DNA of 64,000 nt from an uncultured delta proteobacterium. GTDB taxonomy: Bacteria; Myxococcota_A; Polyangia; Fen-1088. Every line of letters starts with the position of its first letter. Within the stretch, counting starts at the first letter, position 1. The notes under the pieces were generated by a model. That model made no database searches. It was not told the DNA's origin and saw nothing but the letters and a program-made list of their open reading frames with translations. Location of the stretch: the NCBI GenBank assembly GCA_963767925.1, contig CAVYGB010000010.1, positions 64,001-128,000 of the forward strand, in the 5' to 3' direction. This document shows, piece by piece, positions 443 through 56,775 of the stretch. Position numbers and translations under genes: made by a program.

Positions 443-443
443 A

Positions 444-8608: not shown

Positions 8609-8815
8609 GCGCACATCCCGGGCCAGCCCGGCGCGGCCCGCACCTTTCCGGGCATGTCGGGTTGGCCAGCACAGCGGCGGTCCCCCGGACCAACCCGGGT
8701 TTTTCCCGAGCCAGGAGCGGTGGCGGTTGCCGCCCCGGCCAGGCTAAAATGGTCCCGGGGGATCTCGTTCCCCTGGCAGCGGTACAATCACGCCCAGAAG
8801 CTCCCGCGCACGGAA

Positions 8816-10453
<1,638 letters not shown>

Positions 10454-14900: not shown

Positions 14901-17486
14901 GCAGCTCCCACCGGACATGAGCTGGGGCGTGACCTCGCAGTCACCGCCCGAGCGGGCGAAGCTGGGGGGCGAGCCGCCGCCGTCGAAGGTGACCGTGTAG
15001 GTGCCCGTGTCGACGAGCGCGGCCAGGGTGAAGGTCTCTTCGGTCCCCACCAGGCCGGAGGTGAGCTCGCCGAAGCTGAAGGCGTTGATGGCCGTCCCGG
15101 GCGGGTTCTGGAGCTGCAGCAGCCCGCGGCCCGCGCCCTGCAGCAGCAGGCTGGCCACGCCGCCGGAGCCCGCCATCACGTTGACCGTCGCGTCCCGGTC
15201 CCCGGCCAGGGTCGGCCGGAAGAACACGGTCATCGAGCACTGCCCGCCGGCCGCCAGGGGCGGGCCGCAGGTGTTGCTGCCGGGGACGATGCCGAAGTCG
15301 CCGGGGTGGTTGCCCTGGATCACCGTCGCCAGCATGCCGGTCGAGGCCTGGCCGGTGTTGCGCAGGAAGACCTGGGTCCCGGGCATCGATTCGGTCCCCA
15401 CCGGCAGCGCGCTGAACCCGAGCAGGGTGAGGTTGGACCCGGTGGCCTGCTGGAAGGCGATCGAGGCGGGCATTGCCCCGGTCGCGCTCAGGGCCGCGGT
15501 GACCGCCCCGCCCGGGTTGGCGCTGACCCGCAGGTCGGTGCTGAAGTCGCCGACGTTGGCGGCCACGAAGCGCACCGCCGCCGAGCAGGACTCCCCCGAG
15601 GTGAGGATCTGGTTCTGGCAGCCGTTCGAGCCGATCACGAACTGGCCCGAGCCGGTGCTGAGCTGGACCAGGCCGGTGTCGGAGTCGCCCCGGTTGATCA
15701 CGGTGAAGATGACCTCGCTCGACATCTGACCGAGCCCCACCGTGCCGAAGCTGGCCGCGGTCTGCAGCAGCGCCAGCCGGGCGCCGGTGACCCCCAGCCC
15801 GCTCAACATGGCGCCGGTGGTGCCGGCCCGCTCGGCAACCGCCGTGAGGGGCGAGCTGCGCTGGCCCGCGCCGCCCGGCGCAAAGGCCACCGACAGCGAG
15901 CAGGTGGCGCCCGGCTCGAGGGAGCGGTCCTGACAGGAGTCGGTCCCCGGCACGATCTTGAAGTCTCCGCTGGTGGTGGTCACCCGGATCGCGCCGGTTG
16001 CCGCCCCGCCCGTGTTGGTGATGGTGAAGCTGCCGCCGGCGCTGCTCTGGCCGACCGTCACGCCGCCGAAGTTGCGCTCGGCCGGCGAGATGCTGATCGA
16101 CGGGCGGCTGACCCCGGTGCCCGCGACGGTGGTCTCGGCGGCGGCGATGTCCATGCCGCGCACCTTGCCCCTGACCCGCACGATGCTGGTGGCGGCCCCC
16201 TCGGCCGCCGGGGTGAACACGACGGTGAGGTCGCAGGAGGCGCCGGCCGCCAGGCGGGTGCCGCAGGTGTGGCGCAGGGCGAACCGGGCGTCGGTGCTCT
16301 CGGGCCGCAGCTCCTCGATCTCCTCCTGCCCCTCGTTGCGCACGGTGAGGACCAGCTCCGGGCTGGCGCTGCCCACCGCCACCGGCACGAAGCTCGGTCG
16401 CTCGGGCCCCAGCACGAGGGCGGCCGGCGGCACCCCGTTGCCGCTGAGGGGCACGCCCACCGCGTCGCCGCCGCTCACCGAGAGGGCCAGCACGCCGCGC
16501 TTGGCGCCCACCGACTTGGGGGTGAAGGCGACCTGCAAGGTACAGGTCCCGCTGGCCGCGATCAGGGCCGGGCAGCCGCTGGTGACGAGGAAGTCCATGC
16601 TGCTGGCGGTGGCCCGGAACTCGGTGACCGGCGCGGTGCCGGGGTTCTTGATGGTCACCATGGTGGGGCGGCCGGTGCGGCCGACGCCCACCGCCTCGAA
16701 GTCGACCGCGCTCGGCAGCGACTCGACCGCCGGGCGGGCGACGCCGTTGCCCGCCAGCTCGACCGTCACGGTCGGAGAGCCGGTCACGGCGGCGATGAGG
16801 GTGCCGGTCTTGGGGCCCACCGAGGTCGGCTTGAACACGACCGGCTGCATGCAGGAGGTGCCCGCCGCCAGGGTGGCGGTACAGGTGCCACCCATCCGCT
16901 CGAAGCCTTCCCCGGTGATCCGCAGGTCGAGGCCCGCCGCCTGCAGCGTGCCCTCGTTCCGGATCATGACCGCCTTGGCCTCGCTGGTGCCGCCCACCGA
17001 GATCGACCCGAAGCTGAGGTCCATCTGGGTGATGGTGAGGACCGCCGGGCGATTGGCCTTGCCGGTGAGGCTGGCCGTCTTGCGCCCGCCGCCCGCGCTG
17101 ATCTCGAGGGTGGCGGCCAGATCCCCGGCCCGCGTGGGTTTGAAGACCACCATGACCACACAGCTCTGGTTGCGGTTGAGGGTGCCGCTGCAGCCGGTGG
17201 CCATGAACTGGTCAGCGGCCGGGCCGGTGGTGATGACCCCGACCGTGTTGAGCGCGCTCGAGTGGACGTTGCGGACGGTGAACATGAGGGCCGCGCTGGT
17301 CTGCCCGACCAGCGTCTCGGGAAAGGCCCGGGTGGCCGGGTCGATCACGACGGGCGCCGGAATTCCGCCGGGTCCGACCGCCGGGCTCTCGCTCCCTCCA
17401 CAGCCTGCCGCGACACCGACACCCAGCACGGCCAGCAGAATCGGAAACGTGCGCCCACGCGGGCCGAAGCTACCTGCGAAAGTCAT
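11961..17486 (-). CDS. 1841-aa surface lipoprotein with 16 choice-of-anchor D/ASH-type Ig-like repeats
   Basis: Lipobox VAAGC; repeated FG.V.VG....F.V.N.G...C...L..G.SC...V.F.P...G...A.L...L.G.G units (16 counted). Start taken at ATG 17486. Confidence 0.88.
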   Translation of the reverse strand: MTFAGSFGPRGRTFPILLAVLGVGVAAGCGGSESPAVGPGGIPAPVVIDPATRAFPETLVGQTSAALMFTVRNVHSSALNTVGVITTGPAADQFMATGCSGTLNRNQSCVVMVVFKPTRAGDLAATLEISAGGGRKTASLTGKANRPAVLTITQMDLSFGSISVGGTSEAKAVMIRNEGTLQAAGLDLRITGEGFERMGGTCTATLAAGTSCMQPVVFKPTSVGPKTGTLIAAVTGSPTVTVELAGNGVARPAVESLPSAVDFEAVGVGRTGRPTMVTIKNPGTAPVTEFRATASSMDFLVTSGCPALIAASGTCTLQVAFTPKSVGAKRGVLALSVSGGDAVGVPLSGNGVPPAALVLGPERPSFVPVAVGSASPELVLTVRNEGQEEIEELRPESTDARFALRHTCGTRLAAGASCDLTVVFTPAAEGAATSIVRVRGKVRGMDIAAAETTVAGTGVSRPSISISPAERNFGGVTVGQSSAGGSFTITNTGGAATGAIRVTTTSGDFKIVPGTDSCQDRSLEPGATCSLSVAFAPGGAGQRSSPLTAVAERAGTTGAMLSGLGVTGARLALLQTAASFGTVGLGQMSSEVIFTVINRGDSDTGLVQLSTGSGQFVIGSNGCQNQILTSGESCSAAVRFVAANVGDFSTDLRVSANPGGAVTAALSATGAMPASIAFQQATGSNLTLLGFSALPVGTESMPGTQVFLRNTGQASTGMLATVIQGNHPGDFGIVPGSNTCGPPLAAGGQCSMTVFFRPTLAGDRDATVNVMAGSGGVASLLLQGAGRGLLQLQNPPGTAINAFSFGELTSGLVGTEETFTLAALVDTGTYTVTFDGGGSPPSFARSGGDCEVTPQLMSGGSCTIRVRFQPQSAGPKAGSLVVTTSDGVSTRVALTGTGTGPLQFSPRPHNFGDRPAGSTTDQVFELANRGPLPMTAVAVSLAGSTDYVVASDTCATSPPAAGATCAVTVRFIPTTPGAKATTLTATGTFMVAGANQTETSAVAISGTATPAAQIGVDPATHDFGTVPVGSAGATQMFRVSNAADRPTTGGIQLDTTQAGGDFAVSRNGCLLADNTSPRPLAAGESCTFDVRFSPGATGARAGVIRAFANPGGSLALRLGGTGLSTLVVTPGAFDFDSGGLNVLGQPSASQPTPPRREFIVTNRGTEAVALTTQLQPSSLVGATADGPSYFQLLPSSTAAAVCPPSLAGGASCRVEVAMITPAGATAGKKYARLLASGAAATTAAVAEVSGTLRADAALVYLDGNAPRDFGGVKVNQVSVAHLVQVQNSGGVGAGALQIEIPTNFERVLASGTNPDTGNPVCVAGDPLAASAICDLVLRFRPNTALGNLMGTLRVSATGFGAVSGNQDKLLTGVGLPVGGIYLAPTPSDFGAATPGVAAPIERVLTVTNETGVPVAVAAGAATSTGAGFSVAAQTCAPSIPAGGMCTVTARFQPDMAATAGTVTGSVQLVGTPAGGAAQTASASVQGRVVVPGLRIEAPPEGASWGEALVGIAATARVFTVRNTGGAATAAGPRIALAGPQGAEFAVPAGAENNTCTAALPPNGTCTVTVVLTPMAIAARAATLTATAGAASASVALSANAVLPSVIQVVSIGGAAGAGTTVEFGNKAVGSETAIDVVVRNVDNGQRVPAPTFTLGDSVNFRFDTNPGTASDCFDLTQDGLQGGPPGEACTVRIFFRPQALPAAGAAAPNLASTLIVGGAATGSTLNLRGHAVSALAITPDGRPFGGVALNATSGATTFTVTNSNDAGIPGTGQVAVSLDGADATSFRITRNECAGTTLPAGGSCAIDVVFEPRTAGAKAAALSVTASPTNGVSASLSGSGM

Positions 17487-17791
17487 GAATCTAGCCTCCG
17501 TCTCGGTCGATCGAGCACCGCCGACTCCGCCGGGCGACGACCGTAAAATATCGAGGAAAGGCGCCCAGTTTTGTGGATCAATCGGGAAAAGCGCAAGCAA
17601 AAATCGGCTCGAATTGGCAGGGATTGAGCCTGACGGCGGGGGTGCCCGGCGTGCTCCGATCCACAGGCGATACGTCGATCCGGCAGGTCCGCGCCCAGCT
17701 GGCGGCGGACACGCCCGCCGCCCTCTCCCGGTGTCACCTTCCCGGCGTCTTCCGGGACCGTTCCTTCGAAGGTGGCGACAGCGTCGACGTC

Positions 17792-39633: not shown

Positions 39634-40422
39634 TCACGGGTGGTCGGCCGCGGTCAGGGCGGGCGGCGGCGGCACCCGCTTGCGGTAGCGGCGGGGCTGG
39701 GCCTGGACGATGGTGGCGTCGGGCAGGCGCAGCAGCTCCGAGACCCGCACGAAGCCGAAGCCCCGCTCGCGCAGCCGGCGGATGATCTCGGGCAGCGCCT
39801 TCTTCGTCTCCGGGCCCCGCCCGTTGATGTGGAAGATCACGATCGACCCGGGCTGCACGGCGGCGGTCACCCCCTCCACCATCCGCCGGGCGCTGACGTA
39901 GCCGCCCGCGTCCTGCGAGACGACGTCCCACAGGACGATGGGGCGGCCCCCGGTCTGGAAGGGGAGCCAGGCCGCCCAGTCCCCGAAGGGCGGCCGGAAG
40001 CCAACCGACTGCCGGTCGAGCGAGGCGATGATCCGATCGGTCCGCTCGATGTCGGCGCGGGCCTGCTCCATGGTGAGCCTCGAGAAGGCCGGGTGATCGT
40101 AGGAGTGGTTGCCGAGCTCGATGAGCGGCTCGCTGGCCAGGGCCAGCGCCTCTTGCCGGTGGGTCTCGACCCAGCGGCCCGAGACGAACACGGTGGCCGG
40201 GACCTCCTCGTCCTGCAGGATCTCGAACACGTCGCTGTCGAAGCCGCGCGGGCCGCGCTGGGTGGGACAGGCGTCGAAGGTCAAGGCCACCACCGGCTGG
40301 CGGGTGGTCACGGCGGCGATGGCGCTGGCGGCGCTCCCCGGTCCTGTCACCCGCTCGCCGGCGGCGACCGGCGCGGCGCCGGCCAGCAGCAGCACCAGCA
40401 GCCCGAGCCTTCGCCACCCCAT
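39634..40422 (-). CDS. CE4 polysaccharide deacetylase (secreted)
   Basis: Signal peptide; VALTFDAC, ATVFVSG, GNHSYDH, FRPPFG, GSIVIFH. Confidence 0.88.
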   Translation of the reverse strand: MGWRRLGLLVLLLAGAAPVAAGERVTGPGSAASAIAAVTTRQPVVALTFDACPTQRGPRGFDSDVFEILQDEEVPATVFVSGRWVETHRQEALALASEPLIELGNHSYDHPAFSRLTMEQARADIERTDRIIASLDRQSVGFRPPFGDWAAWLPFQTGGRPIVLWDVVSQDAGGYVSARRMVEGVTAAVQPGSIVIFHINGRGPETKKALPEIIRRLRERGFGFVRVSELLRLPDATIVQAQPRRYRKRVPPPPALTAADHP

Positions 40423-40471: not shown

Positions 40472-41317
40472 TTACAATTTTTCTGACTTATTCATGTCGG
40501 CCTCCAGCACCGCCAGGTTGCGCGCAAGCCCCGGCAGGGTCGGCTGCAAGGCGTGGGCGGTGCGGTAGGCCCGGTGGGCCTCGGCGAGGCGGCCCAGCAT
40601 GTGCTCGACAAGGCCGATGCTGGCATGGGCCTCGGCGAAGGTGGGAAAGTCGGCCGCCGCGCGCCGGTAGCGGGCCAGCGCCTCCTGGGTGCGGCCGCGC
40701 TCGCGCAGCTCGTTGGCCAGGTTGAAGCGCAGGACGGCCGCCACCTCGGGCGGGGTGAGCGGGCGCAGGTAGGCCGCGCCGGCCGCGGGCACCGCGTATT
40801 TGCTGCGATACCAGCTATCGGGCATCGGCTCGCCCTGGCGCAGCAGCTCGACGTTGGCCAGGCCGGGCCCGGCCCCGTCGCGCACGCGCACGAAGAAGTG
40901 GCCCGGCACCAGCACGCCGACCGCCGGCACCCCGGCCGCTTCGGCCAGCGCCAGGTACAGGCTGCCGAGGCCCACGCAGGTCCCCCGCCGCTCGCGCACG
41001 ACCCCGGGCAGCAGCATGAAGCGGGCCTGCTGGCTGGTGATCTCGCGCTCGAACCGGCCCTCTTCGAACAGCAGCCGCCGGAACACCTCGGCCGGGCGGT
41101 CCCCCCGGCGCAGGGCCGGCTTCGCGCGCTCCACCATCCGGCCCAGCTCGGCCCGGGTCAGGTCCGCCGTCGCCGCGCTCAGGTCCCCCGTCTCGAGCGC
41201 CACCTCCAGCAGGGCCGACAGGGCGGGTCCGGGCGGCGGCTGCCGGCGGCAACCGGCCAGCAGGCCCAGCAGCAGCGCCAGCAGGGCCGCCTGGGGGACG
41301 CGGGGGACGCGCATCAC
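40472..41317 (-). CDS. SirB1/transglutaminase-like lipoprotein with TPRs
   Basis: Lipobox LAGC; RRGTCVGL..LY, PGHFFVR, NVE (putative Cys-His-acid triad); C-terminal TPRs. Confidence 0.8.
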   Translation of the reverse strand: MMRVPRVPQAALLALLLGLLAGCRRQPPPGPALSALLEVALETGDLSAATADLTRAELGRMVERAKPALRRGDRPAEVFRRLLFEEGRFEREITSQQARFMLLPGVVRERRGTCVGLGSLYLALAEAAGVPAVGVLVPGHFFVRVRDGAGPGLANVELLRQGEPMPDSWYRSKYAVPAAGAAYLRPLTPPEVAAVLRFNLANELRERGRTQEALARYRRAAADFPTFAEAHASIGLVEHMLGRLAEAHRAYRTAHALQPTLPGLARNLAVLEADMNKSEKL

Positions 41318-43356
41318 TTCGCCGCGGCGAGCGGCTCCCAGTCCTCCCAGTAGTTGTACAGATCGCGCGCCGTCATCATCCAGACCACGAGGCGCTTGTT
41401 CTTGAGCTCCTCGGTCCCCCGGCGCATCAGCTTGTGCCGGACGTTGGGCCCGCCGCCGTAGCTCATCACGAGATCGACCGGGTAGCCGAGGGCGCGGGCC
41501 AGGTGGGCCGACACGCCGGCGTGCTCGCAGTCGGTGAGCTGGTAGACGCCGGTGAAGCTGTCACCGAGGAGGACGATGGGGCTGCCGGCGTCGTCGTCGT
41601 AGGGCGCCCCGTCGGCGTTGAGGACCCGCAGCCCGGTCAGCGCCTCGGGCTTGAAGCGCTTCTTGTCCGCTTCGCGCAGGCGGGAGTGCAGATCCCCGTA
41701 GCGCGTGAAGGGGACCTCCAGGGTGGAGTAGCTGCGCGCGCGGGTGGCCAGCTCGGCGTACCAGGGGTAGCGCTTGATCCGGTCGGCCACCGCGGCGGCG
41801 GCCAGCTCCAGGCCGGCGCTGGTCCAGTGGGTGTCCTGGTGCTGGAAGATGGCCGGGCCGTCGCCCCGCCGGCGGGCCAGGAAAGGTGGCCACAGGTCCA
41901 CCACCTCCACCCCCGCCTCGGCCAGGGCGAGCAGCAGCTTGCGCGAGAAGGGGTTGACCAGCTTCCCGGCCAGGGCGGCGTTGGCCGGGTCGAGCTTGTC
42001 CGGATAGACCTCGACCTTGTCCGGGACGGGCACGAACAGGAAGTCGACCCCCTGCTTGGCGAGGAAGTTCTTCCACTCGACGATGACCGAGAGGGGGCTC
42101 TTCTTGCGCGGCTGCCGCTCGAGGTCGCCGCCCACCGCGTATTCGAGCGAGGCCCGGTAAAACAGGTAGCCGTCCTGGCCGGGCAGTCCCTTGATGGCGG
42201 GGGGCGCCGAGCGCAGGTGCTTGCGCACGACGGTGGCGAAGGGCAGCACCCGCTTGCGCCAGCTCTCCCAGGAGCCGCCGCCCACCTCCTTGACCTCGCG
42301 CCGGATCGCCTCCGCCACCCGCCCGGGGTCGGCGCTGGTGCGCCCGGGGCTGAGGCGAAGGGCGGCCGTCGACGAGGAAGCGGCGGTCGCCTTGGGGCCG
42401 ATCCCCTTGACCAGGAAGACGTTGTAGACCGCCCGGCCCTCGGGCTTGCCTCGCATCACCACGGTCGGCGCCTCGACGCTGTAGTCGCCGAGCGAGCCCC
42501 GTACCTCCGCCTCGGTCTGATCGTCGGGCCAGCGCGGGCCCGACCCGGCGAGGTCGGTGTTGTACGAGGGGTACCAGTAAGAGGCGAGCTTGTGGGCCCA
42601 GGCGTGCACCTCGGCCGGGGCCAGCGGCTTGCCCGCGTAGTCGTCGAGGAGCAGGGCGGCCGCGGCGGCCGGGAAGAGATCCGGGCGGGCCCGGCCGTAG
42701 ATCTCGGCGTAGCCATCGCCGTCCTCGTCGGGCAGCTCGGAGAGCCCTTGCCACCAGGGGGCAAACTCGACCTTGACCCAGAGCTGGCGGGGCTGGCCGC
42801 CCCCCGGATCGTGCAGGTAGACCTCGCTGGCCTGCTGGCGGGGCAGCGGCGGCCCGGCGCCCAGCCCCCAGCTCTCCTCGCGGACGGCCGAGGAGATCTC
42901 CTCGACCCCCTCGGCCAGCTTGGCGTTCTTCTCGGCCAGCCACTGGGCCAGGGGCGCCAGGGCCATCGGGCGGGCGCGCTCGCCGTCCGAGAGGGGCGTC
43001 TTGCGGATCGACCCGGTCAAGGTGGCCGGATCGAGCACGCCCCGGAACAGCTCGCTCGGGCTGATGCGCGGCCGGCCCGGGGCGGCCTCCCCCTCGGGGG
43101 CCGGCTCGGCGATGAGGAAGTTGGCGTGGTAGGCGGCGAAGTCGAGGTTGGCCCGGGTGGGCCGATCGATCTCGCGCACCAGCACCTGGGCGTCGACCCG
43201 CCGGTAGCGGGGGCTCACGGTGCGCACCTCCGCGTGCCGCGCCGGCACCACCTCGCCCCCGCTGGACCAGGGCGACCGGGCGGCCCCCGAGGCGCAGGCC
43301 AGGCCCGCGATGCCGATGCTGAACCCGAGGAAGATGCGGCTGTTCATGCTGTCCAT
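41314..43356 (-). CDS. Lipoprotein with AlgX/AlgJ SGNH-like O-acetyltransferase domain
   Basis: Lipobox GLAC; GQDGYLF, VPVPDK..YP, DTHWT..G, LLGDSF. Confidence 0.82.
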   Translation of the reverse strand: MDSMNSRIFLGFSIGIAGLACASGAARSPWSSGGEVVPARHAEVRTVSPRYRRVDAQVLVREIDRPTRANLDFAAYHANFLIAEPAPEGEAAPGRPRISPSELFRGVLDPATLTGSIRKTPLSDGERARPMALAPLAQWLAEKNAKLAEGVEEISSAVREESWGLGAGPPLPRQQASEVYLHDPGGGQPRQLWVKVEFAPWWQGLSELPDEDGDGYAEIYGRARPDLFPAAAAALLLDDYAGKPLAPAEVHAWAHKLASYWYPSYNTDLAGSGPRWPDDQTEAEVRGSLGDYSVEAPTVVMRGKPEGRAVYNVFLVKGIGPKATAASSSTAALRLSPGRTSADPGRVAEAIRREVKEVGGGSWESWRKRVLPFATVVRKHLRSAPPAIKGLPGQDGYLFYRASLEYAVGGDLERQPRKKSPLSVIVEWKNFLAKQGVDFLFVPVPDKVEVYPDKLDPANAALAGKLVNPFSRKLLLALAEAGVEVVDLWPPFLARRRGDGPAIFQHQDTHWTSAGLELAAAAVADRIKRYPWYAELATRARSYSTLEVPFTRYGDLHSRLREADKKRFKPEALTGLRVLNADGAPYDDDAGSPIVLLGDSFTGVYQLTDCEHAGVSAHLARALGYPVDLVMSYGGGPNVRHKLMRRGTEELKNKRLVVWMMTARDLYNYWEDWEPLAAAK

Positions 43357-43383: not shown

Positions 43384-44136
43384 TCAGGCGCGGGCGGGAA
43401 GATCCTCGGGAGCGACCGGCCCCCGGTAGTCGCCGCGCCGATAGCGCCAGAGGACGCGCAGGACGCGCAGCCCGTAGCGCAGCGGGCGCAGGTGGGAGAC
43501 CTCGTCGCCGTAGTGGGTGGGGATCGGCGCCTCGCCGACCCGCAGGCCGGCGGCGCGGGCCGAGGCGATGACCTCCAGGTCGAAGTCGAAGCTGTCCGAC
43601 AGCTCGGGAAAGCGAATCCGCGCCAGCGCACGGGGGCCGTATACCAGATAACCGCTGTGGTAGTCGCTGAGGTGCAGCCCGAAGGTGAGGTTCTCGAGCC
43701 GGTTGAGCCCGGCGTTGGCCAGGTACTTGTAGAGCGGCATGCCCCCGGACAGGGCGGTGCCCGAAGCGATGCGCGATCCCTGCAGCAGGTCGAGCCCCCT
43801 GCCCTGCAGCTCGCGCAGCAGCCGGCCGAGCACCTCGGGGCTGTACTGGCCGTCGGCGTGCACGCCGGCCACCGTGCTGGCGCCGGCGGCCAGGGCGGCG
43901 GCCAGCCCGTCTTTCATGGCGGCGCCGTAGCCCCCGTTGCGAGGGCGGCGGATCAGGCGGAGGCGCGGCTCGACGGCGGCGAGCCGGGCGGCCACCGCGG
44001 CGGTGTCGTCGCCGCTGCCGTCATCGACGACGATGATCCCGCCCAGCTCCGGGGGGGCCGTTCGTACCAGGCGGTCGATCACGCCGGGCAGGTGGCGGGA
44101 GGCCTGATAGGCCGGGACCACCACCTGCAGGCTCAC
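43384..44136 (-). CDS. GT2 glycosyltransferase (DPM/ArnC-like)
   Basis: VVPAY, VDDGSGD, NGGYGAA, HADGQY, GSR, SDYHSGY, FDFDLE, PIPTHYG; GTGA overlap with the upstream gene. Confidence 0.9.
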   Translation of the reverse strand: MSLQVVVPAYQASRHLPGVIDRLVRTAPPELGGIIVVDDGSGDDTAAVAARLAAVEPRLRLIRRPRNGGYGAAMKDGLAAALAAGASTVAGVHADGQYSPEVLGRLLRELQGRGLDLLQGSRIASGTALSGGMPLYKYLANAGLNRLENLTFGLHLSDYHSGYLVYGPRALARIRFPELSDSFDFDLEVIASARAAGLRVGEAPIPTHYGDEVSHLRPLRYGLRVLRVLWRYRRGDYRGPVAPEDLPARA

Positions 44137-45257
44137 GCCCCGCTCCCGCCACCGCCCCCCAGCGCCGCCCGGGCGGCGGCGGCGGCGATCTCGGGACCGT
44201 AGCGGGCCCGGTAGTCGGCCACGATGGGCGGCAACATCTTCGCCAGCGGGGTGTGGGGGGTCCAGCCGAGCAGCCGTTGCGCCTTGTCGATGTCGGGGAT
44301 CCGCTCGTCGCAGTCGTCGTAGCCGGCCCCGTAGAACTCCTCCGCCGTCACCTCCCGGGTGTGCACGCGCGCCTCCGGGACCTGCTGCTGATAGGCCCGC
44401 CCGATCTGGTCGGCCAGCTCGGCGATGCTGAGGTCGTTGGCCGGATTGCCGAGGTTGAAGATCTCGCCCCGGCAGGCGGCCGGCCGCTCGAGGATGCCGA
44501 CCACCGCCTCGACGAAGTCCTCGATGGCCACGAAGGAACGGCGCTGCCGTCCCCCCTCCACGAGGGCCAGGTCTTCCCCCCGCAGCAGGGCCGACATGAA
44601 CGCCGCCAGCACCCGGGGGATCCCCTCGCCGTCGATGTCGGGGACGAAGTCCATGCGCGGCCCGATCACGTTGAAGGGGCGGACGATGGTGAAGGGGAGG
44701 CCGTGGTGACGCCCGCTGGCGAAGATCACCCGCTCGAGGAGCTGCTTGGCGCAGGCGTAGGTCCAGCGCTCCCGGTGCACGGGGCCCAGCCAGAGGGCGC
44801 TGTCCTCCTCGTTCATGCGGGCCATCGGCCGCCCCTCGCCGTCGAGGGCCGCCCGCCCGTAGACCTCGCAGGTGGAGAAGTGGACGAGCCAGCGCTCCCG
44901 TTCGGTGCACAGGCGCACGAGCGGCACGAGGTCGGTGTAGCTGGCGTCGATCACCTCGAGCGGGCGCGTGTTGTAGAGCGAGGGGTTGCACAGGGCGGTC
45001 AGCGACACGACGGCGTCACAGCCCTCGACGACCTCCTCGATCAAGCCCGGCTTGTCGAGGCGGGCCTGGATGCGCCGGACCCGCCCGTCGGTGGGGGCCA
45101 GCTTGGTGAAGGAGACGTCGACCGCCCAGACCTCGCGGTCGGGCCGGGCCAGCAGCGCCGGCACCAGGTGAGACCCGATGAACCCACCCGCCCCCAGCAC
45201 CGCGACCCGGGTGGGGCGAGCGGGCGGCCGCCCCGAAAACGTTCGCGGAGTGCTCAT
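44133..45257 (-). CDS. UDP-D-apiose/UDP-D-xylose synthase (plant AXS/UAS-like SDR)
   Basis: GAGGFIGSHL, ALCNPSLYNTRPL, HFSTCEVYG, RWTYACAKQLLER, FTIVRPFN.IGPRMDF.P, PRVLA, FNLGNP.N, EFYG.GYDD.D.RIPD. Confidence 0.85.
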   Translation of the reverse strand: MSTPRTFSGRPPARPTRVAVLGAGGFIGSHLVPALLARPDREVWAVDVSFTKLAPTDGRVRRIQARLDKPGLIEEVVEGCDAVVSLTALCNPSLYNTRPLEVIDASYTDLVPLVRLCTERERWLVHFSTCEVYGRAALDGEGRPMARMNEEDSALWLGPVHRERWTYACAKQLLERVIFASGRHHGLPFTIVRPFNVIGPRMDFVPDIDGEGIPRVLAAFMSALLRGEDLALVEGGRQRRSFVAIEDFVEAVVGILERPAACRGEIFNLGNPANDLSIAELADQIGRAYQQQVPEARVHTREVTAEEFYGAGYDDCDERIPDIDKAQRLLGWTPHTPLAKMLPPIVADYRARYGPEIAAAAARAALGGGGGSGA

Positions 45258-45291
45258 CGGGCTGCCACCGGGGTGCTGCTTTCGGCGACGA

Positions 45292-46344
45292 TCAGGGCGC
45301 GCTGGCCGCGGCCCGCGCGCCACCGCCCGGCACGAAGATGTCGGGCCAGCGGTCGTTGCCAGAGTGAAAGGTCAGGCGGGCGGCCTGATCGGCCGGGCTG
45401 CCCACCTGCCACAGGTAGATCTCGTAGTCGGCGATGTCGTGATCGTGCCCGCGCTGGGTGGCAGCCCAGACCAGGAATCCGCCGTCGTCCGACAGCTCCG
45501 GGAAATATTCGTGCGATCGGCGCCCGGGCAGGTCGATGAAGGTCTTCTGGTCGTCGGGCACCTCGCCGGCGAGCCGGGAACCCTTGGTCTCGGCGCGGAA
45601 GACGCGGCTGCCGCCGTTGCCGGTGGGGTGGACCCAGTAGACCGAGCGGCCGTCGGGGGTCCAGTTGATCTGGCAGCCGTCGCCGGTGCGGGTCCAGGTG
45701 CCGCCGGCCACGTCCCAGATGCCGGTCTCGCGCTTGGAGCCGCGCAGGGTGATGGCGATGAACTTGCCGTCGCGGGACATCTGCGGCTGCTGCAGCAAGG
45801 CCCCCTCGAGATCGGACACCTTCTCGCTGTCGACGAGGACGGTCTCCTCGCTGCCGCCCAGCTTCTTGCGGTAGACGCGGGTGCTGCGCACGAAGAGGAT
45901 CTCTTCGCCCGAGACCCAGGTCCCCCAGCTCGCGTTCTCCACCGCCGGCTGCGCCTCGCCACCTTCGGCCGGCATGAGGTACAGGTCCCACTTGCCGTCG
46001 GCGTTGGCGTCGCGCTCGCTGACCCAGCCCTTCTTGCTGCGCACGAAGAGGATCTGCTTTCCGTCGGGTGAATAGCGAGGGAACCAGTCGACCGGATCGC
46101 CCTTCGTGAGCTGCTCGAGGTTGCCCCCGTCGGTGTCCATGGCGAACAGGTCGTGGTTGCCCAGCCGCGAGCTGGACCAGACGATGCGGCCCTTCACCTT
46201 GGCGCCCACCGCCTTGATCTTGGCCGCCTCGGCCGCGTCGATCTGGGCGCCGCTGCCGGTGGGGGCGGCCCCTCCGACCGCGGCACAGCCGGCCAGCAGC
46301 GCCAGCAAGGTCCAGGGGAGAAAGAAATTCATCTTGGCTTTCAT
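45292..46344 (-). CDS. TolB-like (PD40) beta-propeller lipoprotein
   Basis: Lipobox LAGC; WSSSR.GN.DLF, PRYSPDGK, RLTFHSGNDRWPD. Confidence 0.85.
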   Translation of the reverse strand: MKAKMNFFLPWTLLALLAGCAAVGGAAPTGSGAQIDAAEAAKIKAVGAKVKGRIVWSSSRLGNHDLFAMDTDGGNLEQLTKGDPVDWFPRYSPDGKQILFVRSKKGWVSERDANADGKWDLYLMPAEGGEAQPAVENASWGTWVSGEEILFVRSTRVYRKKLGGSEETVLVDSEKVSDLEGALLQQPQMSRDGKFIAITLRGSKRETGIWDVAGGTWTRTGDGCQINWTPDGRSVYWVHPTGNGGSRVFRAETKGSRLAGEVPDDQKTFIDLPGRRSHEYFPELSDDGGFLVWAATQRGHDHDIADYEIYLWQVGSPADQAARLTFHSGNDRWPDIFVPGGGARAAASAP

Positions 46345-47294
46345 GACACCAGCTCCTGCCGCTCCGGGCGGCTCGCGAGGGTTGTTGCGGGGAGAGGGAA
46401 GCAGCGAGCCAGACCCTCCCGGACGCCCAGGGGAAGATAGCCGAGATCGCGGCTGGCCTCATCCGGGGGTAGATCGGCGTCGTGGACCATGCCGGCGATC
46501 GCCTGCAGGGTCAGCGGGGGATCGCGCATCAGCAGGCCGAGGCCCAGCGCGGCCGCCTGGCACAGGCGCACCGGCAGGTGCACGAAGGCCTTGCGCTGGC
46601 CGCGGCGGGCGAGCAGCAGCTCGGCCAGCTCGCGGATGGTCACCGCCTCGCCGCCGCTGAAGTTGTAGGTCTTGCCCCGGCTGCGGGGGTTGCCGGCGAT
46701 GCGGGCCAGTCCGTCCACGATGTCCTGAGCCCAGACCGGGCGCTTGCGGGCAAGGCCGTCGCCGATGAACGGCACCACCGGAAAGCGCTCGAGATAGCGC
46801 CAGAACAGCAGCAGCTCCTGGCCCCCGCCCTCGTCGTAGACCAGGGTCGGCCGCACGATGGTGTGGGCCATCCCGCCCTGGCCCTTGACCAGCGCCTCGC
46901 CCGCCAGCTTCGACTGCCCGTAGCGGGTCAGGCTGGGGTAGGTCACCGAGGCCGAGGAGACGTAGACGAAGTGGTCCACCCCGGCGCGCGCCGCCTCCGC
47001 CACCATGCGCGCGGTCCCCAGCCGGTTGATGCGGTCGAAGGCGCCGGGATCGGGCGAGAGGATGATGGCGGCGAGGTGGAACACGGTGGACACGCCGTCG
47101 AGCAGCCCGACCAGCGACGCGGGATCGGCCAGGTCCCCCTCGCGAATGTCGCAGGGCAGCCCCTGGAGGCGCGCCCGAAAGGGATCGCCCGGCTGCACGA
47201 GCGCCCGCACCGTCCAGCCCGTCTCCACCAGCGTTCGTACCAGCCGCGACCCCAGGACACCGCTGGCGCCCGACACGAAGACGACGCGTTTCAC
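46341..47294 (-). CDS. Atypical/extended SDR NAD(P)-dependent epimerase/dehydratase
   Basis: VSGASGVLG, HLAA, YVSS, YGQSK, IVRPT.VY; ATGA overlap with the TolB-like gene. Confidence 0.88.
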   Translation of the reverse strand: MKRVVFVSGASGVLGSRLVRTLVETGWTVRALVQPGDPFRARLQGLPCDIREGDLADPASLVGLLDGVSTVFHLAAIILSPDPGAFDRINRLGTARMVAEAARAGVDHFVYVSSASVTYPSLTRYGQSKLAGEALVKGQGGMAHTIVRPTLVYDEGGGQELLLFWRYLERFPVVPFIGDGLARKRPVWAQDIVDGLARIAGNPRSRGKTYNFSGGEAVTIRELAELLLARRGQRKAFVHLPVRLCQAAALGLGLLMRDPPLTLQAIAGMVHDADLPPDEASRDLGYLPLGVREGLARCFPLPATTLASRPERQELVS

Positions 47295-47484
47295 TGAGGC
47301 GGGGACGCTAGCAAAAGCGATCCGGGCCAGCAAGCTGCGACGCGGAGCGGGCCCCGCCAGCGCGGCGCCCTCCGCCGCGCGTCAGTCCTTTACCTATCTT
47401 TTTCAGTGCGCCGCTTGGCCTGGAACGATTGCGTAGGTAGCCTGGGGCCTCTCGCGCCAGGCCCCGGCGGCGAGCCGTAACATC

Positions 47485-48582
47485 ATGCGTACGCGCTTCG
47501 CGTTTCCCAAAGTCGGTGGCCATCTGGCCGGGCTCGGCCTGCTGGCCGCGCTCGGCGTGGCCGCCGGAGGAGTCCTGGCGCTCGATCGCGGTGCCGAGGC
47601 GCACCGCCTGGGTGCAAGGGTCGATCGTCTCGCCCGCCTGACGGCCGCAGGCCTCCCCGCCGCTACCTGCCTTCCTGGCTCGCTGGCGGGGGCGATGCCG
47701 GCCAGCCCGGGCGCGCCGCTGCTGGCCGCCTGGCAGAGCGTCGCCGGCTGCGGGGCCAGCTCGGCGACGGGCGGCGGCGGTGGCGTCAAGTGGATCGGCC
47801 GCAGCGTGACCGGCGGGCTGTTCGGCGTGCAGTGCCAGGCGAGCTACAGCCCGCTGCTCGCGGTGCGCGACAAGATCGAGCACCACTTCGTGGTCAACAC
47901 CCTCATCACGACCGAGATCACCGACCGGGTGAGCCTGGGGATCAACATCCCCCTCGTCTACAAGTACCTGCGCGACCCGTATCAGCTCGACATCGATCTC
48001 TCGAACAGCGGCCTCGGCGACACCTCTATCCAGGTGACCCGCCAGCTCGGCCCCATCGGCGCCACCGCCCTCACTGCCACCGTCGGCGTCCCGACGGGCA
48101 AGTGGGACACCACCTACCGCAACTCGCCCATGCCGCAGCATCAGCAACTCGGCTTCGGCAAGGCGACCGGGTCGCTCACCCTGGATCACACGATGGATCA
48201 AACCTGGGGGCTGGTCGTGCTGGGCGGCCTCGGCTCCTGGCGGGGCGGGCAGAACCACTGGGAGAGCTACCGGGCCCCCAGCGCCACCGCCTACACCTAC
48301 GCCGGGCTGTACCTGGGGTCCTTCGTGCCCTCGGTGGGGTTCACCACCACGGGCTTTCTCGGGCACGACCGCGACCGTTCCCAGCCCGAAAACAGCGGCA
48401 TCCTGGTGATGTCGGCCAACGCCTCGCTGGAGTGGTCGACCGACTGGATCGCGGTGCTGGCCGGGGTGTCGCTGCCCTATCAGTACGACGCGATCCTGCG
48501 CGACAGCGAGGGGTTCCCCAGGAACCCCTGGCGCTGGGGGCAGTGGGTGCTCGGCCTCGGCGTGACGGTTTCTCCGTTCTGA
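47485..48582 (+). CDS. Putative outer-membrane beta-barrel/transporter
   Basis: N-terminal hydrophobic segment, GLGD motif, PTG, beta-strand pattern, C-terminal Phe. Confidence 0.7.
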   Translation: MRTRFAFPKVGGHLAGLGLLAALGVAAGGVLALDRGAEAHRLGARVDRLARLTAAGLPAATCLPGSLAGAMPASPGAPLLAAWQSVAGCGASSATGGGGGVKWIGRSVTGGLFGVQCQASYSPLLAVRDKIEHHFVVNTLITTEITDRVSLGINIPLVYKYLRDPYQLDIDLSNSGLGDTSIQVTRQLGPIGATALTATVGVPTGKWDTTYRNSPMPQHQQLGFGKATGSLTLDHTMDQTWGLVVLGGLGSWRGGQNHWESYRAPSATAYTYAGLYLGSFVPSVGFTTTGFLGHDRDRSQPENSGILVMSANASLEWSTDWIAVLAGVSLPYQYDAILRDSEGFPRNPWRWGQWVLGLGVTVSPF

Positions 48583-52278: not shown

Positions 52279-53596
52279 CTACAGGCCGGCCAGGCGGCGG
52301 TCGGCGTCGCCGAAGCGGTCGAGCTTGACGCCCATGCGGTCCATGAGCGACAGGTACAGGCTGCACAGCTTGCGGTTGTCGTCGCCGGCGGGCAGGTAGT
52401 CGAGCACGCGGCCGGTCTCGAGCGTGCCGCCCAGGCCGCCGGCGGTGACCACCGGCAGCTTCATGTTGTCGTGCTTCCAGCCGGACCACATGTTCGACAG
52501 GAACATCAGGCAGGAGTTGTCGAGCACGGTGCCCTCCCCTTCCGGCATCGCCTCCAGCCGGGCGGCCAGGTAGGCGAACTGGCCGAGGTGGAAGCGCGAG
52601 ATGCGCTCGTAGCCGTCGGACAGGTCGTCGTGCGAGGCGCCGTGGTGGCCCTCGCGCACGTCGAGGAACGGGTAGTAGAGCGCCGAGAGGTCGCGGCACA
52701 GCAGCAGGGTGGCGATGCGGGTCTTGTCGGTCTGGAAGGCGAGCGCGATGATGTCGCACATCAGCCGCGCGTGCTCGCGCAGATCTTCGGGCAGGCCGTT
52801 GTCGCGGGCGCTTCATGGTGAGCAGCGGGCGGTCCTCGCTGGCGCTGTCCTCGGCCTTGCCCTTGCTCGGTGCGCATGCCGCTCGACGCGCTTCTCGACC
52901 TCGCGCACGCTGGTCAGGTACTCGTCGAGCTTGCCCTTGTCGCTGGCGCTGACCTGGCGGCTGAGGCTGCTGGCCCGGTCCATCACCCGGTCGAGGACGC
53001 TCTGGTTGCGCAGGCTGCCGCGGTTCTCGAACAGGCTGTCGAAGGCCAGCGACGGGTAGACCTCGATCGGCACCGGCGAGTCGGCGCTCTGCCAGGAGAT
53101 GTGCGAGCTGTAGGCCATCGAGAAGTTCGTCTCGTGGTAGCCGGTCATCGGCTGCTCGCAGGCCAGCACCATGCTCGGCTGGGCGGTCTCCTGGCCGACC
53201 TGCTTGGCCAGCACCTGGTCGACGCTGATGCCGGCCTTGATCACCGCGCCCCGCTGCAGCGACGCGCCCGACAGCATGTTGCCGGTCTGGCCGGGGTGGA
53301 TGCCCTCGCCCACCGCCGGCTTGTTGAACAGGCCGTTGATGACGTTGATCTTCTTCTTCACCGGCTCGAGCGGCTGCAGGGTCTTGCCGAGCTTCATCTG
53401 CGGCGCCCTGCCCCTTGGCCCACCAGTGGTTGCCGTTGATGCCGTTGCCCATGAACAGCACCGCGAACCGCTTGGGGAAGGCGCCCGCGGCCCCCGGCAC
53501 CGCCGCCGGACCGGCCAGCGCGGGCATCGACTCCAGCCAGGGCAGCGCCATGGTGACACCGGCGCCACGCAACACCGCTCGTCGGGAGATCTTCAT
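52279..53596 (-). CDS. DUF1552 protein, paralog 2 (about 3 frameshifts)
   Basis: MKISRRAVLRGAG, YSSHISW, EGEGTVLDN spread over three ORF-track frames. Confidence 0.8.
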
Positions 53597-56500
53597 CGGA
53601 GGGGCTCCTTTGCCATCGCTGCTCGCCTCACGGCCTCGTTTGTTCAGGAACTGCGGGCTGGTCACGACGCTCTCCACGAGGCTGCCGAAGCGGTGGCCGT
53701 CGCGGCCAGCCGGGCCCGCATCTGCCCGATGGTGGCGTCGTCGGACAGCATCACGCTCCGCCCCAGCCCGTAGGCCAGCAGCTTGCGCGCAGAGGTTGTC
53801 GAGGAAGTCGTCCTGCCGGCGGGCGCGCAGGTAGGTCCGCAGCCCGGCCAGCCCCTCACCCTCGCCGCCGCCGGGAAGGCTGGCCTTCGCGTCGACCGGC
53901 CGGCCGGCGAGGTCCTGGCGTCCGCTTCTCGCCGACGGGGCCGTAGCCCTCGAAGACCAGGCCGAGCGAATCGAAGCGGGCGTGGCAGGCGGCGCAGGCC
54001 GGGTCCTCGCGGTGCTGGGCCAGCACCTCGCGCAGCGGCAGATCGGCCTTGGCCTCGTCGCGCGGCAGCTCGGGCACCACCGCGGGCGGCGGCGGGATGT
54101 CGCTCGCCGAGGACGTTCTTGACCACCCAGTAGCCGCGCTTGACCGGGCTGGTGCGCAGCCCGGGCGCGTTCTTGGTCAGGAACACCGCCATCGGCAGCA
54201 GGCCGCCGCGGCCGTAGGTGCTCGGCGTCGTCGACCCGCACCCAGCGATCCGACCCGCCGGCCGGCTCGGGCATGCCGTAGTGCCTGGCCAGCGCCGGGT
54301 TGACGAAGGTGTGGCGGCCGTAGAGCAGGTCGAGCACCGAGCGGTCGCCCTGGACGACGTCGACGAGGAAGCGGACCGGCTCCTCGAACATCGCCTGGCG
54401 CAGGTCGTTGTCGAAGGTCGGGGAAGCGCTCGCGATCGACGGCGTTGTGCTCCTCGAAGCGGCGGAAGTCGAGCCAGTTGCCGCCGAACTCGGTGGCCAG
54501 CGCCGCGCACCCGGTCGTCCTTCAGCATGCGCCGGGCCTGGCGCACCAGCACCTCCGGCCGGTGCAGGTCGGCCCGCCCGGGCCTCGGCCAGCAGCTCGG
54601 CGTCGGGCATGCTCGACCAGAGGAAGTAGCTCAGCCGGCTGGCCAGCGCGTGGTCCGACAGCGGCTGCACGCCCGGCCCCCGCTCGACCAGGTCGATGCG
54701 GTAGCAGAAGTCCGGCGACATCAGCACGCTGACGACCGCGTCGCGCATGGCCTCCTCGTGATCGAGGCCGGCGGTTTCCCGCTGCGACCGGTAGTAGGCC
54801 AGCAGGTCCTTCTTCTCCGCGTCCGTCCAGGGGGCGGCGGTAGGCCTGGGCGGCGAACCGGGTCAGGGCCTCCAGGTGCTTGGGCTCGGCCTCGTGGCGG
54901 GCCTTCTCCACCCAGCGGACGGTGGCGTTGACGCTGTCGAAGTGCTCGCGCACCGCCTTCATCGCGACCTCGTTGCCGCTCGGCCGGACCCGGGCCAGGT
55001 AGATCTCCTTGACCTTCTTGATCATCGGCTCGGTGGTGACGTCCTTCGCCTCGTCGTCGCTCGGCGGGGTGACGGCCTTGCCCCCCGACGCCGCGCCCGC
55101 GCCGGCCGGCTCGCTGCCCGCGCCGGGGGCCGAGGCGGCGCCGCGCTTGCGGGCCTCGCCGCTCTCGCTGAAGTAGAACTGCACGTAGGTGCGGCTGGTG
55201 CCGAGCGCGACGTAGTCGAGGTCGTGCCAGAGGGCGTCGAGCTCCTTCTTCCCCTTCTCGTCGAGGATCATCTCGTAGAGGGGCTTGTCGTCGCGGAAGT
55301 AGCCCATCAGGTTGTGGAACCCGGCGCTGAGGTAGCGGCCCTTGTCCCGCGAGGTGTCGAGGTAGTTGCGGCCGCGCTCGGCCACGTAGAAGGCGTCGGG
55401 GAAGACCGCGGCGAAGCGGGCGAAGGCGGCCTCGTAGCGGGCCCGATCGGCCGCCGGCACCTTCAGGTCGGGATCGACGCCCCCCTGGCGGGGGCGCTTG
55501 TCGCCGGCGTCCTCGTCATCGTCGTCGTCCGCATTGGCCGGGCGGGCCCGGACCGCCGGGGCGGCGACCGGATCGGCCTTGCCGTCGATCTGCAGGACGT
55601 TGCGGTCGTAGCTGGTGCGCGCGGCCGCGTATTGCCGGTTCTTCCACATCAGGAAGGGCTGGGCGGTGCCGCGCATGCCCGCCACGCTGAGGGGCTCGAA
55701 GCGGGGCTCGATCTTCTCGCGCAGCCCCGTCACGAAGGCGCGCATGCGCTCGCTGCCGGCGCGGGCCAGGACCCCCCGCGCCTCGCCGGTGACCCCGGCC
55801 GCCGGAGGGGGCAGCTCGCGCCACATGGTCTGCAGCTTGGCGATGGGCCCCACCTGCTCGCGGGTCTCGAGGGTGCGCCAGATCAGCGCCAGGTACTTCG
55901 GGCTCACCTTGGTCTCGGCCGCCACCTGGGCCAGGCTGGCTTTCGGCTTGCCGAGGGCGGCCCGGTGCTTGAACCGCCAGGCGGCGTGAAAGTAATCGGC
56001 GAAGTCGGTGGCGTGGCGCTTGTAGAAGTCGACGATCTGGGTGACGCAGTACTTGTCCCGGTCGGTCTCGACGAGCATCGGGTGGGCGGCGAAGGCCAGC
56101 GTGTCGGGCCGGAACACCAGGTGGTTGGCCACCTCGCGCGCGGCCTGCAGGTACTTGCCCAGCAGCGCCGGCGACATCGCCAGCGACTCGCCCGAGTTGT
56201 CGAAGCCGGCCGGGTTGGCCGGGTCCACCGGGAACTCCCGGGTCGGGCGGATGTCGACCCCGGTCAGATCGCGGATCGTGTAGTTGTATTCGGCGTTGCT
56301 CAGCCGGCGGGCCAGGACCAGCCCCGGATCGCCGGCGTTCTTGCGGGCCTCATGGGTCCGCAGCGCCTCGATCCAGTGGATCACCTGCTGCCGCTCGGCC
56401 TCGGGTGGCTGCTCCGACGTCTCGGGCGGCATCTGCTTGGCCACCAGCCGCTCGAGCAACGTCTCCCACTGGTGGCTGTCGCGCACCACGGTCTCGAGGC

Positions 56501-56699
56501 GGGTGTAGCCGCGCAGATCGAGGTCCGCCTTCGGCTTCTCGCCGCCGTGGCAGCTGTTGCAGTGCCGCTCGAGGAAAGGCTGGACGGTGGCGCCGAGGCC
56601 CCGCTCCAGGTCCCGGACGGACGGGGTGGACGCGCCGGCCGCCCAGGCCGGAGGCGCGAGAAGCAGAAGAGGGACAGCGATGATTGCGCGTAGTGTCAT
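53593..56699 (-). CDS. PSCyt1/DUF1587/DUF1592/DUF1588/DUF1585 protein (many frameshifts in the 3' third)
   Basis: Signal peptide; CNSCH; RRLSNAEYNYTIRDL; GFDN; LASRLSYFLWSSMPD; TSPVKRG; CAACH. End approximate. Confidence 0.8.
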
Positions 56700-56775
56700 G
56701 ACGTTCGGCAACCCGACCTTTACAAAGTGCGCCCAGACCCCACCCAGCTCGCAAGATATTGCCAAGCCGACGCCC

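Follow-up and report, generated by a model that had tools for sequence, protein, structure and literature searches.

A predicted UDP-apiose/UDP-xylose synthase from bacteria and its conserved gene cassette in uncultured Myxococcota

To our knowledge, apiose was long believed to be made by plants only. Bacterial synthases were shown in 2017 in a handful of Proteobacteria and, in the sections of that study drawn on here, without a common gene context or a known glycan (PMC5607165; this paper and the three others cited below are used for portions of their text). Here we describe a gene located at positions 44133..45257 of a 64,000-nucleotide stretch of DNA (hereafter the window; assembly GCA_963767925.1, contig CAVYGB010000010.1, positions 64,001 to 128,000) from an uncultured delta proteobacterium (GTDB lineage Myxococcota_A; Polyangia; Fen-1088), together with the gene cassette to which it belongs. 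Its product is predicted from its sequence to be a ring-contracting decarboxylase of UDP-glucuronate that belongs to the UDP-apiose/UDP-xylose synthase type (UAS), and it is compared below with the plant enzyme (AXS1, or AtUAXS, of Arabidopsis), the bacterial UAS proteins of 2017 (bUAS), the apiose operon of X. pisi, and the ArnA-ArnC pair of the lipid A aminoarabinose pathway.

For the plant-type enzyme (UAXS), the described course of the reaction is oxidation at C4, opening of the ring in a retro-aldol step that splits C2 from C3, decarboxylation only afterwards, and ring closure to either a furanose (apiose) or a pyranose (xylose) (PMC7984243, PMC12820599). Ten signature residues are tabulated for it (K189, Y185, T139, Y105, E141, R182, R341, N214, C100 and C140; PMC12820599, Table 3), among which Cys100 is the residue of proton transfer and ring opening; in UDP-xylose synthase (UXS) and ArnA, position 100 is occupied by Ala and position 140 by Ser, and Y105, E141, R182, N214 and R341 are also present in both (PMC12820599). 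The 2017 study, as far as the consulted sections go, dealt with only 8 bUAS, whose flanking genes were not conserved, and reported that the Geminicoccus roseus enzyme (GrUAS) makes UDP-apiose and UDP-xylose at about 1.7:1 (PMC5607165). The X. pisi apiose operon is described as comprising XpUAS, the GT90 apiosyltransferase XpApiT, and XpXylT, a member of glycosyltransferase family 2 (GT2) (PMC6193724).

We regard it as fairly probable that the window gene is a bacterial counterpart of the plant UDP-apiose synthase, and that its conserved cassette loads the resulting pentose onto a membrane lipid carrier. When the protein was searched by sequence against solved structures, the top match was AtUAXS 6h0n (307.3 bits, E = 1.3e-90, query residues 9-360), while Burkholderia PbgP3 reached 206.6 bits, the ArnA decarboxylase domains 186.7-191.9 bits, and human UXS 74.7-76.9 bits. 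Among the NCBIfam models, U4kpxs (NF008872) gave the best score, 273 against a cutoff of 294, and ArnA (NF005998) gave 225.6 against a cutoff of 777, neither cutoff being reached. An AlphaFold2 (AF2) model built on a 17-sequence alignment (mean pLDDT 76.2) retrieved AtUAXS chains at ranks 1-4 in Foldseek (TMq 0.78-0.81), ahead of ArnA. In the alignment to 6h0n, all ten UAXS signature residues are kept (K171, Y167, T129, Y95, E131, R164, R319, N196, C90 and C130), including the catalytic triad T129, Y167 and K171, which aligns to T139, Y185 and K189 of AXS1; since Y95, E131, R164, N196 and R319 are common to ArnA and UXS, these five are necessary, not discriminating. The window protein thus resembles AtUAXS (PDB 6h0n, 6h0p), its best solved relative by both sequence and fold, in being a single-domain short-chain dehydrogenase/reductase (SDR) of similar length with identical signature residues, both cysteines included; it differs in sequence (about 41-42% identity in Foldseek, 44.6% to the plant-type proxy introduced below) and in being encoded in a bacterial operon. 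Scores, fold ranking, signature residues and the careful tree described below support its assignment to the AXS/UAS type rather than the ArnA/UXS type, as a sequence-only reading of this DNA had proposed.

All five motifs quoted in that reading are present in the 374-residue translation, namely ALCNPSLYNTRPL (residues 88-100), FSTCEVYG (127-134), YACAK (167-171), GPRMDFVPDIDG (199-210) and EFYGAGYDDCDERIPD (307-322), and the AXS1 motifs that it gave for comparison agree with the 6h0n alignment (AAICTPADYNTRPL, FSTCEVYG, RWSYACAK and EFYGEGYDDSDKRIPD). An NAD motif of the GxxGxxG type, GAGGFIGS, occupies residues 22-29. The stop-to-stop frame extends over 44133..45371 and would admit an N-terminal extension of at most 38 residues, which makes a formyltransferase domain impossible, and Pfam found SDR/epimerase domains only; the lack of an ArnA formyltransferase domain was therefore correctly called. 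An alternative GTG start at 45323 would create an overlap with the upstream gene. The G+C content at third codon positions (GC3) of the frame is 0.93, as expected in a window of about 72% G+C. The ArnA-ArnC system and the Ralstonia-type U4kpxs share with the window protein the SDR superfamily and the substrate UDP-glucuronate, but they show Ala/Ser where the window protein has Cys/Cys, fall in a separate clade, and have NCBIfam cutoffs that the protein does not reach; ArnA moreover is fused to a formyltransferase, whereas the window protein is one SDR domain. Neither a formyltransferase nor an ArnB-type aminotransferase or ArnT was found in the window.

Relatives were collected in three ways. 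A word-indexed protein search, in which 8000 candidates were scored, gave 2783 proteins at E <= 0.001; the 119 non-self matches listed are 62-82% identical to the window protein, about 85 of them (hand count) bear the JGI name 'UDP-apiose/xylose synthase', and the 3 with NCBI names are called NAD-dependent epimerase/dehydratase. An exhaustive search of representatives clustered at 50% identity returned 12065 proteins at E <= 0.001, of which 143 at E <= 1e-30. A scan of one genome per species yielded 164 pattern matches, 155 of which encode relatives, mostly in uncultured Myxococcota and Fibrobacterota; the best 80 of the 155 were kept as loci, and consist of 58 of the Myxococcota/Polyangia metagenome-assembled genome (MAG) type, 17 from Fibrobacterota, 1 from Planctomycetota and 4 from Pseudomonadota or cyanobacteria. 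As references, we included a plasmid gene of Alloyangia (Yangia) pacifica (L081), the species of YpUAS (Smith and Bar-Peled 2017, PMC5607165), a U4kpxs-like gene from a Ralstonia megaplasmid (L082), a Sulfuricella gene annotated U4kpxs (L085) and Pantoea arnA (L084). A 358-aa protein (P0326), assigned to G. roseus by NCBI and carrying a UDP-apiose name in UniRef, was taken as GrUAS. The plant-type proxy (P0124), chosen by score alone, is a 657-aa protein that reaches 487.5 bits against 6h0n over its residues 259-627; another candidate for this role, P0134, was ruled out at 252 bits.

A FastTree phylogeny of 154 rows was built after dropping two fragments (L046 and L057) and, for not covering the domain, 80 of the 150 representatives; it placed the window protein in a clade of 99 rows (support 99), distinct from that of ArnA/U4kpxs. 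More careful IQ-TREE runs were made on 54 and then 55 hand-picked rows, to which the 58 Myxococcota-type loci contributed 14; P0172, P0137 and P0179, which sit on long branches, were excluded from both, P0133 also from the second, and the two runs agree. The 55-row tree shows (i) an AXS/UAS clade of 44 rows (100/100) holding the window protein, the presumed GrUAS and the plant-type proxy, (ii) a separate ArnA/U4kpxs clade of 7 rows (100/100), (iii) the plant-type proxy as sister to Planctomycetota and Myxococcota, window protein included (99/88), and (iv) another subclade with the presumed GrUAS, the Alloyangia protein, a Rhodanobacteraceae MAG protein (L079) and their kin (96/85). In the phylogeny that the sequence-only reading had suggested as a check, the protein thus does not cluster with ArnA/U4kpxs, and UXS is distant by score (77 bits).

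Given this tree position, and since UDP-apiose is synthesised both in plants and in G. roseus (PMC5607165), the window lineage is bracketed by both. Its identity to the plant proxy and to the presumed GrUAS is 44.6-47.5%. Moving the proxy to the GrUAS subclade was not rejected by the approximately unbiased (AU) test (log-likelihood difference 5.87, p 0.205), and the sister relation of plants and Myxococcota is therefore the favoured topology only; on these sequences, a reading of the window lineage (Myxococcota and Planctomycetota) as the nearest bacterial relatives of plant AXS is favoured and not established. The window-type and GrUAS-type sets have different fixed residues at 19 positions, over which the plant proxy is split 8 against 7 and favours neither set. 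The presumed GrUAS shares with the window protein the 100/100 clade, the first cysteine and the signature residues except that at position 130, where it has Ser for the window Cys130; it lies in the separate 96/85 subclade and is 47.5% identical. With the bUAS of 2017 more generally, the window protein has in common that all are bacterial stand-alone SDRs (G. roseus, X. pisi, Ca. Entotheonella; PMC5607165), and its type differs, relative to the consulted sections of that paper, in having a conserved cassette and 155 relatives.

Four further observations were made among these relatives. The cultured myxobacterium Polyangium mundeleinium has a GrUAS-type (Ser) enzyme (P0348), not a window-type one, so that both subclades occur in Myxococcota. 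A MAG labelled Candidatus Rokubacteria (L003) encodes a UAS 73% identical to the window protein and nested beside it in the Myxococcota clade, a placement that may stem from gene transfer or from an error in binning; GT2 is present at this locus, and homologues of the AlgX-like, PD40 and SDR2 proteins described below were not found within 17 kb. Two 50%-cluster representatives are fusions, P0128 joining an AXS-like domain to a C-terminal BD-FAE/alpha-beta hydrolase domain and P0129 to an N-terminal Polysacc_synt_2 (4,6-dehydratase-like) domain.

Both cysteines had been put forward as AXS-diagnostic; this stood for the first and not for the second. The position of C90 (AXS1 C100) is Cys in 44/44 rows of the AXS/UAS clade, Ala in 7/7 rows of the ArnA/U4kpxs clade, and Cys in 1 of the 4 intermediate tree rows. 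Position 130 is Cys, as is position 90, in all 120 close homologues among the matches listed, the window protein included, while it is Ser in the presumed GrUAS and in 116 of its 120 relatives among the matches listed, and in several Fibrobacterota loci too. As GrUAS, with its Ser, makes UDP-apiose, the second cysteine is dispensable for ring contraction, and the motif STSEVYG, which had been offered as an ArnA/UXS marker, fails in that role, since it is present in the G. roseus protein taken as GrUAS. Of the two cysteines, only C90 separates UAS from ArnA/UXS in the sequences compared. A third cysteine, within YACAK, is less constant: of the 120 relatives listed, 90 have Cys there, 29 have Ala and 1 has Ser.

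The window gene is the third of five head-to-tail minus-strand genes, encoding SDR2, a PD40 propeller protein, the UAS, a GT2 and an AlgX-like protein (Table 1). SDR2 and the PD40 gene share 4 nt where the stop of the former meets the start of the latter (ATGA), 34 nt separate the PD40 stop from the UAS start, the UAS stop overlaps the GTG start of GT2 by 4 nt (GTGA), and 27 nt lie between the GT2 stop and the AlgX-like start.

Table 1. Coordinates of the UAS-like gene, its cassette and nearby genes in the window.
Feature	Position	Strand	Length (aa)	Basis
UAS-like extended SDR	44133..45257	minus	374	Translation; Pfam PF01370
SDR2, HpnA/NDUFA9-like	46341..47333	minus	330	Pfam PF01370 and others
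PD40/TolB-like beta-propeller protein	45292..46344	minus	350	Pfam PF07676
GT2 glycosyltransferase	43384..44136	minus	250	Pfam PF00535
AlgX-like protein	41314..43356	minus	680	Pfam PF16822, 110 bits
Possible outer-membrane beta-barrel	47485..48582	plus, divergent	365	Signal-peptide-like N-terminus, C-terminal Phe
Polysaccharide deacetylase family protein	39634..40422	minus	262	Pfam PF01522; NCBIfam PdaB-like under cutoff

The GT2 has DPMS (5mlz) and ArnC as its best solved relatives by sequence, and its best NCBIfam model is PpgS (66.8 bits against a cutoff of 370), followed by AglJ, dolichyl-phosphate hexose transferase and ArnC. In Foldseek, the first 19 ranks for its AF2 model (pLDDT 89.4, 24-sequence alignment) are taken up entirely by ArnC, DPMS and GtrB (TMq 0.63-0.72), and three Asp residues (D39, D43 and D95) do not vary across 24 orthologues. 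From sequence and model, we predict a polyprenyl-phosphate glycosyltransferase akin to ArnC, DPMS, GtrB and PpgS, and because of its likeness to ArnC, DPMS and GtrB we propose a polyprenyl-phosphate-linked pentose as its product. The SDR2 protein scores 91.8 bits with the NCBIfam HpnA model, under the cutoff of 367, has 9g83_P and NDUFA9 chains as its best matches in the PDB, and could act as a reductase or epimerase on a sugar or a lipid-linked sugar. The PD40 protein reaches 49 bits with the NCBIfam TolB propeller model, under cutoff, and shows by eye a lipobox-like LAGC motif at its N-terminus. In the AlgX-like protein, a hydrophobic N-terminus is present and an SGNH acyltransferase/esterase-like domain spans residues 392-661; its N-terminal half has no family match, and the whole protein no NCBIfam match.

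Conservation of the cassette was assessed by tblastn of the window proteins against the 80 loci, adjacency being counted where at least 800 nt of room was available. GT2 lies directly downstream of UAS in 65 of the 75 loci with room, that is, in 53/55 Myxococcota-type loci (the exceptions being L049 and L050), 11/15 Fibrobacterota and 1/1 Planctomycetota loci, and in 0/4 GrUAS-type loci. Homologues of the AlgX-like, PD40 and SDR2 proteins occur in 53, 49 and 43, respectively, of the 58 Myxococcota-type loci, many contigs being short. An SDR2 homologue adjoins GT2 in the Fibrobacterota loci, one of which (L059) has the order UAS, GT2, SDR2, a 237-aa open reading frame (ORF), MBOAT, AlgJ-like, AlgX-like, PD40. 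In a Myxococcota locus (L004), a barrel-like protein, a SASA esterase, MBOAT and an AlgJ-like protein precede the cassette. The MBOAT and AlgJ-like pair, common among related loci (L002-L065 compared), is missing from the 64-kb window, where a divergent barrel-like ORF stands upstream of SDR2 instead. That this ORF encodes an outer-membrane beta-barrel is our guess from its termini; it has no Pfam or NCBIfam match, and homologues occur in 23 of the 58 Myxococcota-type loci and as a 397-aa ORF in L059. The deacetylase gene is weakly linked to the cassette, with a tblastn match in 1 of the 80 loci, that of the nearest relative (L001) only.

As in the X. pisi operon (PMC6193724), the UAS gene and the next glycosyltransferase gene overlap by 4 nt, and both arrangements couple synthesis to transfer. 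Unlike that operon, the window cassette has no GT90, its GT2 is ArnC/DPMS-like and matches PF00535 rather than PF13704, and it adds SDR2, the PD40 protein and the AlgX-like protein. No GT90 (PF05686) was detected among the 14 neighbouring window proteins scanned by Pfam, and neither a GT90 nor a DegT aminotransferase was found around the UAS gene or in loci L059 and L004. An X. pisi-like arrangement was seen at L079 (positions 7923-10253), where the UAS gene is directly followed, in the same frame past the stop, by that of a 380-aa GT90-family protein; the pairing is that of UAS and ApiT in the X. pisi operon, and L079, a member of the GrUAS subclade, is the only locus in which a GT90 was found beside UAS. 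There is also an analogy in gene pairing with ArnA and ArnC, likewise a UDP-glucuronate decarboxylase together with an ArnC-like GT2. On a Paraburkholderia sp. plasmid (NZ_CP155075.1; L083, positions 5902-8364), an 820-aa ORF, unannotated in the record, combines an AXS-like SDR, with Cys at the C100 position and Ser at the C140 position, and a DegT/DnrJ/EryC1 aminotransferase.

Elsewhere in the window, a DUF1552 (HXXSHH) gene at 52282..53568 (minus strand) is split into two ORFs, matching profile positions 21-218 and 241-307, a split that points to a shifted frame or to a stop inside the gene. DUF1552 also occurs intact, at 159..1739, and 54525..56765 holds a PSD3/PSCyt cytochrome-like gene. 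A protein of more than 1800 aa with Ig-like repeats matching Cep192, ASH, HYDIN and DUF1573 models is encoded at 11964..17600 (minus strand).

Since the full set of signature residues is kept, we infer UAXS chemistry for the window enzyme. It would be an extended SDR with tightly bound NAD+, in which, by analogy with Arabidopsis UAXS, C4 of UDP-glucuronate would be oxidised, retro-aldol cleavage between C2 and C3 would open the ring with Cys90 handling proton transfer, and decarboxylation, aldol re-closure to a furanose and reduction would yield UDP-apiose together with some UDP-xylose. Most likely, the UDP-pentose passes directly from the synthase to the translationally coupled GT2, which would transfer it to polyprenyl phosphate; as UDP-apiose is documented to be unstable (PMC5607165), such coupling of synthase and GT2 would be useful. 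The lipid-linked pentose would then be a donor for glycosylation outside the cytoplasm, and the AlgX-like protein may O-acylate the target glycan, with MBOAT and its AlgJ-like partner serving the same step in related loci. In its fullest form, this scheme would make the cassette an undescribed, widespread apiosylation pathway, in which a Cys/Cys synthase and a GT2 form polyprenyl-phospho-apiose, the target is O-acylated by AlgX/AlgJ/MBOAT proteins, and the lineage is the nearest bacterial kin of plant AXS; we consider this combination possible, and on the whole doubtful.

Several observations weigh against the reading of the gene as an apiose synthase serving a lipid carrier. For the synthase, NCBIfam contains no UAS model, and the AF2 model falls below a pLDDT of 50 at the active-site loops 88-105, 131-145, 147-166 and 206-214, the substrate-side loops among them carrying C90, Y95 and R164, so that nothing on active-site geometry was drawn from it. 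Position 130 varies within the cassette-bearing clade itself, with Ala in L020, L034 and L036 and Ser in L027 and L044. For the transfer step, the GT2 remains far under every NCBIfam cutoff and has none of the membrane helices found at the C-terminus of ArnC, DPMS and GtrB, being 250 aa long against 301-355 aa in the matched chains and ending in a single basic helix (218-233). As to the wider pathway, neither a GT-C transferase or flippase nor a UDP-glucose dehydrogenase was found near the UAS gene or in L059 and L004, and MBOAT, with homologues in 36 of 86 sequences (the window and 85 loci), has no tblastn match in the whole window. The aminotransferase fusion of L083 suggests, from its domain content, that a keto-pentose is released and aminated in that member of the clade, and SDR2 could be a reductase for such a released keto-intermediate.

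The last two points feed the alternative that survives best, which we judge unlikely: the enzyme would decarboxylate UDP-glucuronate without useful ring contraction, giving UDP-xylose or a UDP-4-keto-pentose as ArnA, RsU4kpxs and UXS do, and either GT2 would transfer xylose or the keto-pentose would undergo reduction or epimerisation by SDR2, in a lipid-linked pentose pathway resembling Arn. The L083 fusion, which lies within the same clade, and the conserved, HpnA/NDUFA9-like second SDR of the cassette keep this alternative alive, and an SDR paired with a GT2 that is ArnC-like parallels ArnA-ArnC. U4kpxs is also the best NCBIfam model (273 against 294), the characterised UAS enzymes themselves give UDP-xylose and show a UDP-4-keto-xylose intermediate (PMC5607165), and the GT2 of the X. 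pisi apiose operon used UDP-xylose, not UDP-apiose (PMC6193724); that GT2, however, belongs to PF13704, as described in the consulted sections of that paper, whereas the window GT2 matches PF00535 and PF13641. Against this alternative, the residue at C90 is the Cys of all 44 AXS/UAS rows and not the Ala of the 7 ArnA/U4kpxs rows, the two clades are split at 100/100, UXS is far more distant at 77 bits, and UDP-xylose could be obtained more simply with a dedicated UXS.

Quite improbable, in our view, is a UAXS-type retro-aldol reaction on another UDP-uronate, or the formation of some other branched or contracted sugar specific to the cassette. An identity of only 44.6-47.5% to the plant proxy and the presumed GrUAS would leave room for it, as would the 19 positions fixed differently between the window and GrUAS types and a gene context unlike any described apiose locus; against it, the ten signature residues for substrate and catalysis are identical to those of AtUAXS, GrUAS was reported to be specific for UDP-glucuronate (PMC5607165), and positive evidence for another substrate was none. 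Chance resemblance or a decaying, non-functional relic is effectively refuted by the match to AtUAXS at E = 1.3e-90, the intact frame with its GC3 of 0.93 in a 72% G+C genome, the retention of both cysteines in 120/120 close homologues listed and a gene order conserved in three phyla, nothing having been found in its favour.

The enzyme class as such is already known from plant AXS and the bUAS of 2017, and JGI names close homologues accordingly. Relative to the literature searched, the size and taxonomic spread of the Cys/Cys lineage, the conserved cassette with an ArnC/DPMS-like GT2 and AlgX/MBOAT-type proteins, and the position of the lineage beside the plant-type proxy all appear to be new; the work on apiose and Myxococcota that was examined, as far as its consulted text goes, concerned apiose catabolism only, and searches of the literature from 2019 on bUAS, apiosyltransferase and UDP-apiose synthase gave plant work only among the matches listed. 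Together, these data point to a much larger bacterial UAS-like lineage that keeps a plant-like Cys/Cys active site, in a conserved cassette that also encodes a predicted glycosyltransferase of polyprenyl-phosphate type and putative periplasmic proteins of acyl transfer, and they correct a rule of thumb, in that the first cysteine alone separates UAS from ArnA and UXS. If UDP-apiose were confirmed as the product of the apiose synthase proposed here, the cassette would offer a concrete route to bacterial apiosides yet to be found and possibly the first apiose donor linked to a lipid; polyprenyl-phospho-apiose, if it is indeed formed, would be such a donor, with which a glycan or lipid of the envelope could be decorated. 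Confirmation would also provide better sampling for a shared transfer event between plant AXS and the bacterial enzymes, and the closest bacterial kinship to plant AXS, if true, would bear on the origin of plant cell-wall apiose.

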